Positions 1,039 to 1,858 of a stretch of 64,000 nt of DNA are shown piece after piece; the stretch's first letter is position 1; each line of letters starts with the position of its first letter. The position numbers were made by a program, and so were the translations under genes. Below the pieces are notes generated by a model, which did not search any database, had not been told where the DNA came from, and saw nothing but the letters and a program-made list of their open reading frames with translations. This DNA is from Escherichia coli (GTDB lineage Bacteria; Pseudomonadota; Gammaproteobacteria; Enterobacterales; Enterobacteriaceae): the NCBI RefSeq assembly GCF_013122565.1, contig NZ_CP053258.1; one strand, given 5' to 3'.

Positions 1039-1040
1039 AT

Positions 1041-1075
1041 AAAACGGGAGGCGAAGGTGCCTCCCGTTTTTAGAT
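1041..1075. terminator. Bidirectional intrinsic terminator (envZ on + strand; antitoxin gene on - strand)
   Basis: Perfect hairpin aacgggagg...cctcccgtt (1041-1070) preceded by an A-run and followed by a T-run; sits directly after the envZ stop and overlaps the minus-strand ORF stop at 1070. Confidence 0.6.
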
Positions 1076-1366
1076 TGTTTTCAATTGATTGATAATGAAA
1101 GGATTCGCTTGCAAAAGCAGGAGCAATTTTCGAGGTGCTCCGGTAGGTTGACGGCGTTTGGTTTCCCAGCTTTTCACCAGGTCATAACTTACCCCTACGG
1201 CGACAGCAAAATCTTGCTGACGTAAACCCGTTGCTTCACGGATCGCTTTTACATCGATCTCGCTAAAAGTATGGACGTGCTCTGGTTCAGGCGTTTCTTC
1301 ACCCTTTTCGATGCGTACCATTTCTTCTGTGCTGGCAAGAAGATCAGCAAATAATTCATCTTTCAT
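1070..1366 (-). CDS. HTH (Xre-like) antitoxin, HigA-2-like, 98 aa
   Basis: ORF-track 98 aa; C-terminal half reads GLRQQDFAVAVGVSYDLVKSWETKRRQPTGAPRKLLLL, typical of HTH antitoxins paired with HigB-2/RelE toxins; lies 58 bp downstream of the toxin ORF on the same strand; GGAGA about 12 nt upstream of the ATG. Confidence 0.7.
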   Translation of the reverse strand: MKDELFADLLASTEEMVRIEKGEETPEPEHVHTFSEIDVKAIREATGLRQQDFAVAVGVSYDLVKSWETKRRQPTGAPRKLLLLLQANPFIINQLKTI

Positions 1367-1424
1367 CTGTTTTCAATGTCTCCGTTGGCATTTCGACCAT
1401 GGTGAAATTTGTGGAGCTTCAACA

Positions 1425-1742
1425 TTAAAGCAGCTTCTCGGACAATAGTTTCAATGCCTTTCTTTGTTCTTCTGTTAAATCATCCTGTTCATTTTTAGGA
1501 TAAATCAACGCCAGATAAATTCGGCCATTGCGTGTTACGTTGTAATAAATTATCCGAATGCCACCCCTTTTCCCCATTCCAGAACGGTTCCAGCGAATTT
1601 TTCTAAAACTGCCTGTGCCTGCGATAATGTCACCGGCAGTGGGATCTTGAATGAGTAGTTCCTGAAAAGCCCGGAACTCATCATCAGGTAGTAATAACTG
1701 GCGGCGTTTGCTAAATCCTTGTAGTTCAATAAAGGTGAACAT
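1425..1742 (-). CDS. RelE/ParE-superfamily toxin, HigB-2 (Gp49)-like, 105 aa
   Basis: ORF-track 105 aa with motif GKRGGIRIIYY...RIYLALIYPKNEQDDLT characteristic of HigB-2/RelE-like toxins; toxin precedes antitoxin (hig-type order); AGGA RBS upstream; ORF is visibly AT-rich compared with flanking genes. Confidence 0.7.
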   Translation of the reverse strand: MFTFIELQGFSKRRQLLLPDDEFRAFQELLIQDPTAGDIIAGTGSFRKIRWNRSGMGKRGGIRIIYYNVTRNGRIYLALIYPKNEQDDLTEEQRKALKLLSEKLL

Positions 1743-1759
1743 AATGCATCCTGCGGTCT

Positions 1760-1800
1760 ATTGATAATTATAAGTGTACCGTGTACATATTGGTAGCTAA
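1760..1800 (-). promoter_or_regulatory. Putative promoter/operator of the toxin–antitoxin pair
   Basis: Minus-strand TATAAT (plus-strand attata at 1767-1772) about 25 nt upstream of the toxin ATG; adjacent tandem GTGTAC-C-GTGTAC(A) motif at 1775-1788 could be an autoregulatory operator; -35 element is weak. Confidence 0.25.
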
Positions 1801-1807
1801 TTAGATA

Positions 1808-1840
1808 TAAAAAAACCCCTTATCCGTTTGGATAAGGGGT
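1808..1840 (-). terminator. Intrinsic terminator of pckA
   Basis: Hairpin ccccttatcc/ggataagggg (1816-1839) followed on the minus strand by a T-run (plus-strand aaaaaaa at 1809-1815), 20 bp downstream of the pckA stop. Confidence 0.7.
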
Positions 1841-1858
1841 CAATGAGATATCAGCTGA

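Follow-up and report, generated by a model that had tools for sequence, protein, structure and literature searches.

The question raised by the gap between envZ and pckA in this Escherichia coli chromosome is whether the two small open reading frames (ORFs) that fill it form a complete toxin-antitoxin (TA) operon and, if so, how long such an operon has resided there. The window (the whole 64-kb stretch of DNA that was analysed) contains envZ on the plus strand, ending at position 1038, and pckA on the minus strand, ending at position 1859. The ORF list gave two minus-strand ORFs between them that match exactly those reported in an initial annotation of this DNA: a toxin gene of higB-2 type (Pfam PF06296) at 1425-1742, encoding 105 aa, and a helix-turn-helix (HTH) antitoxin gene (higA-2/nadS) at 1070-1366, encoding 98 aa. 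The toxin gene comes first and the antitoxin gene second, with an inter-gene spacer of 58 nt (1367-1424), in which a GGAGA (1383 to 1379) lies 12 nt 5′ of the antitoxin ATG; across orthologues the spacing of the two genes ranges from a 4-nt overlap up to 85 nt. The computed GC content of the cassette was 0.421 (toxin gene 0.415, antitoxin gene 0.444), lower than that of envZ (0.579), pckA (0.533) and the full window (0.524), so that the toxin gene is indeed AT-rich in comparison with the flanking core genes, as had been noticed earlier.

The ORFs had also been described as lying between the envZ and pckA terminators, and a consensus scan found hairpins with T-runs at both ends. The first, at 1041-1070 (AAAACGGGAGGC-N6-GCCTCCCGTTTT), is a bidirectional intrinsic terminator, palindromic and with T-runs on both sides, which can end both envZ transcription on the plus strand and transcription of the TA operon on the minus strand; the antitoxin stop codon (1070-1072) overlaps its edge. 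The second is the intrinsic terminator of pckA on the minus strand (read from 1841 to 1814; CCCCTTATCC-AAAC-GGATAAGGGG followed by T7), located directly after the pckA stop codon. Because no terminator was found between the toxin and antitoxin genes, we infer that they are co-transcribed. The features of a type II TA operon with hig order are present, that is, an upstream toxin gene, a promoter and a terminator, and the envZ-pckA gap is, as judged by sequence and comparison, occupied by an intact chromosomal HigBA-2 type II TA operon. No Rfam family was found in the whole window.

The toxin matched the sequences of Vibrio cholerae HigB-2 in the PDB (5JA8, 5JA9, 8A0X) over residues 3-100 with 48% identity (E 1.3e-23), and its exact sequence is entered in UniRef as 'Toxin HigB-2'. 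The Pfam match to PF06296 ('RelE') was of modest score (26 bits, E 1e-5), and PF06296 was the sole domain in a Pfam scan at E≤10, in which PF05973, PF05015 and PF09907 were not found; the label 'Gp49-type' given to the toxin in the initial annotation was therefore dropped. Among NCBIfam models none named the toxin. The peptide motifs quoted earlier, GKRGGIRIIYY and YLALIYPKNEQDDL, are present in the translations. An AlphaFold model of the toxin, built with 15 homologues, had a pLDDT of 88.9 and a b-a-a-b-b-b-a topology with a C-terminal helix alpha-3; its weak region was the b2-b3 loop alone, which is also disordered in the VcHigB2 crystal structure. In a Foldseek search of this model against the PDB the best 11 matches were all VcHigB2 (TM 0.76-0.87), with PfiT and RelE well below them in the list.

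In an alignment of 15 sequences including VcHigB2 the predicted active-site residues K48, R50, R63, Y81 and K83 of the toxin were invariant, as was most of the IIYY strand (beta-strand 3, 64-IIYY-67). The VcHigB2 row of this alignment was taken for residues 4-101 from the PDB alignment; the few terminal residues of the row are provisional, and no conclusion rests on them. Mutagenesis of VcHigB2 had shown R51, R64, Y82 and K84 to be required for activity (PMC5416850), and K49 was added to the catalytic residues by a later paper (PMC10098735). From the profile match, the predicted RelE-like fold and the presence of all five predicted active-site residues, the toxin is of the HigB-2 type.

The antitoxin passed the cut-off of the NCBIfam model NadS (NF041265) with 75.2 bits, the cut-off being 60, and matched the YiaG model PRK10072 with an E value of 4e-18; since the score of the latter match (65.7 bits) is under the 110-bit cut-off of that model, the protein is regarded as a YiaG paralogue and not as YiaG itself. 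At the DNA level no paralogue of the antitoxin gene was found elsewhere in E. coli, K-12 included, the matches in distant mode being restricted to the 1330 cassette-bearing genomes. A domain scan placed HTH_31 and HTH_3 (XRE-type HTH) at residues 39-76. The antitoxin could be aligned over its full length with VcHigA-2, the N-terminal neutralising segment included (E 5e-5, about 26% identity), and its model (pLDDT 72.8) comprised a helix at residues 2-20, a low-confidence linker and a five-helix domain, with HigA2 as the closest fold matches. The PDB matches, PF06296, NadS, the predicted folds and the conserved catalytic residues together uphold the HigB-2/HigA-2-like identity with hig gene order that had been proposed for the pair. 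No paper defining the name 'NadS' was found in full-text searches, in which the sole relevant mention of NadS was that the K-12 nadS gene is expressed (PMC12350097).

At the positions of the VcHigA2 base contacts the alignment showed R68 replaced by D, E71 by K and N72 by S, with only R77 kept. Thus the antitoxin has neither VcHigA2-like DNA-contact residues nor an operator geometry with arms 9 nt apart, and the details of DNA binding are not directly transferable from VcHigA2, because three of the four contact residues differ and the half-sites, described below, are 6 bp closer. The protein is, on this sequence comparison, a HigA-2 homologue with a different operator specificity.

Upstream of the toxin gene, on the minus strand, a Shine-Dalgarno sequence AGGA (1749-1752) is located 6 nt from the toxin ATG; its counterpart CAGGGAG is kept in the orthologues. 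A perfect -10 hexamer TATAAT is found at 1767-1772, and a palindrome, TGTACACGGTACA (TGTAC-N3-GTACA), at 1775-1787, 2 nt upstream of the -10. No good -35 element was found, the hexamers at 17 or 18 nt from the -10 being TACCAA or CTACCA, and it is because of this poor -35 that a simple promoter scan reported no minus-strand promoter. When the 130 nt 5′ of the toxin start were aligned for the window and 26 related loci, the TGTAC-N3-GTACA palindrome appeared directly 5′ of a TAnnnT -10 box, with invariant arms and three central nucleotides that vary across loci. Allowing at most one mismatch, 27 of 28 loci have the motif in the 130 nt that precede the toxin gene, and the other 143 kb of the same 28 loci contain no match; in the 64-kb window the palindrome is the sole match, with 0.03 expected by chance. 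In 19 of the 27 motif-bearing loci the motif is present twice, at a distance of about 30 bp and on either side of a TTGA -35, and the loci situated at the pckA site, the window included, have a single copy.

The footprinted operator of VcHigA2 is TGTACGC-N5-GCGTACA, lying between the -35 and -10 elements (PMC11006873). The palindrome resembles it in half-site sequence and in position, but its arms are spaced by 3 nt instead of the 9 nt of V. cholerae. TGTAC-N3-GTACA is likely the operator of the cassette, and we conclude, reading the binding from sequence, that the antitoxin would autoregulate through it with a specificity of its own. Expression of the cassette could be low, because the -35 is unrecognisable and the promoter has a single operator, two being usual among the orthologues.

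Taken together, these features make it very probable that the cassette encodes a functional HigBA-2 type II TA system, with the toxin acting as a ribosome-dependent mRNA endonuclease and the antitoxin both neutralising it and repressing the operon; the enzymatic and binding steps are modelled on the relatives from V. cholerae, Acinetobacter baumannii and Coxiella. The promoter at about 1767-1796 would drive the operon. The toxin would enter the ribosomal A site and cleave translated mRNA by means of K48, R50, R63, Y81 and K83, and would be kept inactive by the N-terminal segment of the antitoxin folding onto it. An antitoxin dimer, with or without toxin, would sit on TGTAC-N3-GTACA across the promoter and repress its own operon, and depletion of the antitoxin, through proteolysis or because its synthesis stops, would leave free toxin to arrest translation. 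The usual candidate benefits of such a locus are retention by addiction and abortive phage defence.

It is possible, but we consider it unlikely, that the same mechanism serves anti-phage abortive infection or the exclusion of plasmids with related TA systems, the trigger being infection and not host stress. Both proteins matched PHROG phage families of unknown function strongly (phrog_5869, E 1e-33; phrog_2104, E 9e-28), and relatives of the cassette were found by tblastn on 900 plasmid records, all below 60% identity and with Acinetobacter as the top group (306 of the 900), as well as, rarely, in a few phages; RelE/ParE toxins have moreover been discussed as defence toxins (PMC11980606). Against this, PADLOC gave no toxin match and, for the antitoxin, only the generic HTH_VI and RmrA; no defence genes adjoin the cassette, the flanks being core genes of metabolism and signalling.

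The distribution of the cassette beyond E. coli was scanned with the toxin as seed in one genome per species, which gave 27 loci, all of them (27/27) with an antitoxin homologue downstream of the toxin match. The pckA-envZ site is occupied in the same way in E. albertii, Citrobacter gillenii, C. portucalensis, Kluyvera ascorbata and K. sichuanensis, and these loci share the pckA terminator and a similar distance from this terminator to the operator; in the remaining genera the cassette is sited elsewhere. In comparison with Citrobacter and Kluyvera the cassette genes show 75-81% nucleotide identity and the flanking genes 77-86%. With E. albertii the cassette is 98-100% identical and the flanks 92-93%, and among E. 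coli strains it is also less diverse (about 99%) than the adjacent 3′ end of pckA (95.6-96.5%). A neighbour-joining tree on 203 aa placed the pckA-site cassettes in a single clade in only 67 of 300 bootstraps and clearly departed from the species tree, which means that horizontal exchange among Enterobacterales also occurs. Because the same site is used in other genera and the cassette has diverged there about as much as the core genes beside it, the sequences suggest that it has long resided at the pckA-envZ site, being repeatedly lost and exchanged by recombination between close relatives, and not that it was inserted recently.

Within this history the antitoxin has been the more conserved of the two genes. 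The median dN/dS was low for each (toxin 0.076, antitoxin 0.05; dS was saturated between genera), which amounts to strong purifying selection on both. The median dN was 0.057 for the antitoxin versus 0.108 for the toxin, and in most enterobacterial genera the amino acid identity is 84-94% for the antitoxin and 75-83% for the toxin, as exemplified by Citrobacter with 94% and 81%, respectively. Six of the 27 related loci (L025-L030) have a broken toxin gene, with a frameshift, a truncation or an internal deletion, beside a persisting antitoxin homologue, which is an intact ORF of 98 aa or longer in five of them and only a weaker partial match in L029; the search having been seeded with the toxin, this share of decayed toxins may be unrepresentative. 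At the pckA-envZ site of K. sichuanensis a 28-aa toxin remnant overlaps the antitoxin start. The decay of the toxin beside an intact antitoxin in these six loci indicates that some lineages can do without the toxin. Toxin decay beside a persisting antitoxin is the usual route to orphan antitoxin-like regulators, and its recurrence here gives an example of how HTH orphans of the kind of YiaG and NadS may come about.

Two further readings draw on this asymmetry. One, which we regard as rather improbable, holds that this is an unusually old TA locus of stable position, common to Escherichia, Citrobacter and Kluyvera, whose loci have one and the same pckA terminator and a promoter reduced to a single operator; the more constrained NadS would outlive the toxin, and either NadS would be regulatory on its own or read-through from the strongly regulated pckA gene would tie TA expression to gluconeogenic growth. 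The other, very unlikely in our judgement, is domestication, in which the selected part would be NadS as a stand-alone transcription factor and the toxin would be weakly expressed or attenuated and in the course of being lost. The better conservation of the antitoxin and the six loci with broken toxins agree with it, as do the weak -35 and single operator of the E. coli promoter and the existence in K-12 of orphan HigA2-like HTH proteins, YiaG and the annotated nadS. However, the window has an undamaged toxin ORF, PGAP annotated this gene as intact in every cassette-bearing E. coli genome sampled, its dN/dS is about 0.08 with all catalytic residues invariant, and the operator motif, being found nowhere else in the 64-kb window, gives no sign of other targets nearby.

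In E. coli itself the cassette occupies the site in about a quarter of strains. A megablast search of 5426 complete E. coli genomes found the flanks in 5425 and the whole region in 1324, so the locus, as had been supposed, is accessory and absent from K-12. The cassette alone matched 1330 genomes, 1324 of them at 80% or more of its length; the matches were always chromosomal, in at most two places per genome (median one), and 97.5-99.2% identical in nearly all carriers, among which are Nissle 1917 and the ST73 strain clone D i14. The site is empty in K-12, BL21, O157:H7, O111 and ST131 genomes. Partial matches in strains BS-04 and HS-02 were considered as degraded alleles and rejected, their sequences being corrupted at homopolymers, with a poly-K translation, which is attributed to assembly error. 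The PGAP labels of the two genes are 'type II toxin-antitoxin system RelE/ParE family toxin' and 'nadS'.

In the K-12 chromosome (O16:H48 genome) envZ and pckA are, as the initial annotation had stated, immediate neighbours, separated by 75 bp with no gene inside. K-12 keeps the same envZ hairpin but has no counterpart of the terminator at 1814-1841, which is conserved in the cassette-bearing Citrobacter and Kluyvera, and in place of window positions 1071-1857 it carries an unrelated 43-bp filler. This filler was considered as the scar of a deletion and rejected, since its local alignment to the cassette scores 10 and the shuffled mean is 10.4. As the filler is unrelated to the cassette, what separates the two chromosomes here is the replacement of one allele by another rather than a simple insertion; the first 50 kb of the window show no other sizeable difference from K-12. 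No flanking direct repeats or target-site duplication were found around the cassette and no recombinase, integrase or IS element is present at it in the ORF list, so that the direct repeats, att sites and recombinase expected of a mobile-element insertion are all lacking.

The earlier proposal of horizontal acquisition stands only in part: the AT-richness and the variable presence favour it, but the same site is used in Citrobacter, Kluyvera and E. albertii with a divergence near that of the flanks, and neither duplications nor mobility genes accompany the cassette. A recent, strain-specific insertion by a mobile element, to which its low GC (42%), its variable presence within E. coli, its excess identity with E. 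albertii over the flanks and a tree that does not follow that of the species might point, is highly doubtful in view of the missing integrase, IS element and flanking repeats, the unrelated K-12 filler, the site, pckA terminator and terminator-to-operator spacing shared with Citrobacter and Kluyvera at flank-like divergence, and the core-like identity across the 1324 E. coli genomes.

The cassette is thus of an already known kind, real but ordinary, and its annotation exists in over 1300 complete E. coli genomes. That the TA family is well known had been granted from the start, and the locus itself proved to be already annotated in RefSeq and UniRef; with a family that is structurally and biochemically characterised, the discovery value is little. 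A search of the literature for a TA system between pckA and envZ, or for E. coli HigB-2, found nothing specific. The locus is nevertheless a clean and well-delimited accessory one, for which K-12, having no cassette, is a natural null background for a HigBA-2 module, and the comparative footprint yields in TGTAC-N3-GTACA a precise and testable predicted operator for NadS-family proteins.

Among known systems, the closest is HigB-2/HigA-2 of V. cholerae (5JA8, 5JAA, 8A0X), with which the cassette shares the toxin-first order, the predicted toxin fold, the active-site residues and the IIYY 'sliding' beta-strand 3. By homology the antitoxin also shares with V. cholerae HigA-2 an N-terminal neutralising segment and a C-terminal XRE HTH domain, and the TGTAC/GTACA arms recur at the promoter. 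The two differ in that the antitoxins are only about 26% identical, three of four base contacts are changed and the gap between the arms is 3 nt and not 9 nt; furthermore, the V. cholerae module lies in a superintegron cassette, whereas that of E. coli is chromosomal, between core genes. HigBA2 of an A. baumannii plasmid and ToxP/AntitoxP of the Coxiella burnetii plasmid QpH1 belong to the same HigB2/HigA2 lineage. Experiments have shown their toxins to be toxic ribonucleases or translation inhibitors, neutralised and autorepressed by the respective antitoxins (PMC5906591 for the A. baumannii module). Both of these modules are plasmid-borne and serve plasmid maintenance, in contrast to the E. 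coli cassette, which was only chromosomal among the 5426 genomes. Toxins of PF06296 have been described upstream of YiaG homologues, the HTH domain of YiaG being noted to resemble HigA2 (PMC11980606), but the toxins of the relE-yiaG subgroup have an extended disordered N-terminus that the cassette toxin does not have. More distant are HigB/HigA of Rts1 (Proteus vulgaris) and the Gp49 family (PF05973), which share the toxin-first order and the RelE/ParE superfamily but differ from the cassette toxin, which has no match to PF05015, PF09907 or PF05973; in structure, toxins of the VcHigB2 type resemble E. coli RelE more than Rts1 HigB (PMC5416850).

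Codon 13 of the antitoxin gene (window 1328-1330, minus strand) encodes Thr in the window copy, and this copy is the only one with Thr13 in the alignment, all of the other antitoxin orthologues aligned (17 of 17) carrying Ala at this position. Ala13 was also found in every further antitoxin copy examined from E. coli and E. albertii, and database records of the exact Thr13 variant are limited to about 10 contigs. Position 13 falls inside the predicted N-terminal toxin-binding helix.

On the pckA side of the cassette, the pckA 3′ end (window 1859-2400) showed only 95.6-96.5% identity to its counterparts in other E. 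coli strains, as compared with 98.8% identity to K-12 for window 5661-23751. The low identity of the pckA 3′ end was seen against strains with and without the cassette alike, and recombination may lie behind the raised diversity adjoining this variable locus. In the first 50 kb of the window only two indels relative to K-12 were found besides the cassette. The first, in the yhgE–hslO gap (window 5565-5660), has 96 bp in place of the 24 bp of K-12, and the second, after trpS (window 23751-23767), corresponds to a 146-bp REP-like stretch which is present in K-12 and missing from the window. An Rfam scan of the whole 64-kb window (1-64000) gave no families at the gathering threshold.

Among the related loci, those of E. 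coli BS-04 and HS-02 were rejected as real cassette alleles. In these RefSeq assemblies, both labelled complete, the mid-cassette sequence in the envZ–pckA gap is homopolymer-corrupted and the PGAP "hypothetical proteins" of the region translate to poly-Lys, so that both look like sequencing or assembly errors. The cassette of E. coli H240 encodes a toxin 100% identical to that of the window. The H240 record (NZ_OL790696.1), a 4.8-Mb chromosome, is listed among plasmids, where it is titled "unnamed plasmid" and typed as IncQ1.

Downstream of the cassette in the Escherichia albertii NBRC 107761 contig (locus L004, 3170-5315), envZ is disrupted, ending abruptly near residue 260 with a frameshift, and is followed by unrelated ORFs of 213, 176 and 153 amino acids and a 32-amino acid pckA-like fragment. 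This disruption is either a rearrangement of the type strain or an artefact of the draft assembly.

At the pckA–envZ site of Kluyvera sichuanensis (locus L030, 2501-2877) a toxin remnant precedes the antitoxin gene. An in-frame internal deletion has left a toxin ORF of 28 amino acids, which overlaps the start of the antitoxin gene (ATGA), the latter being fully intact. The sister species K. ascorbata has a full-length toxin, also at the pckA–envZ site.
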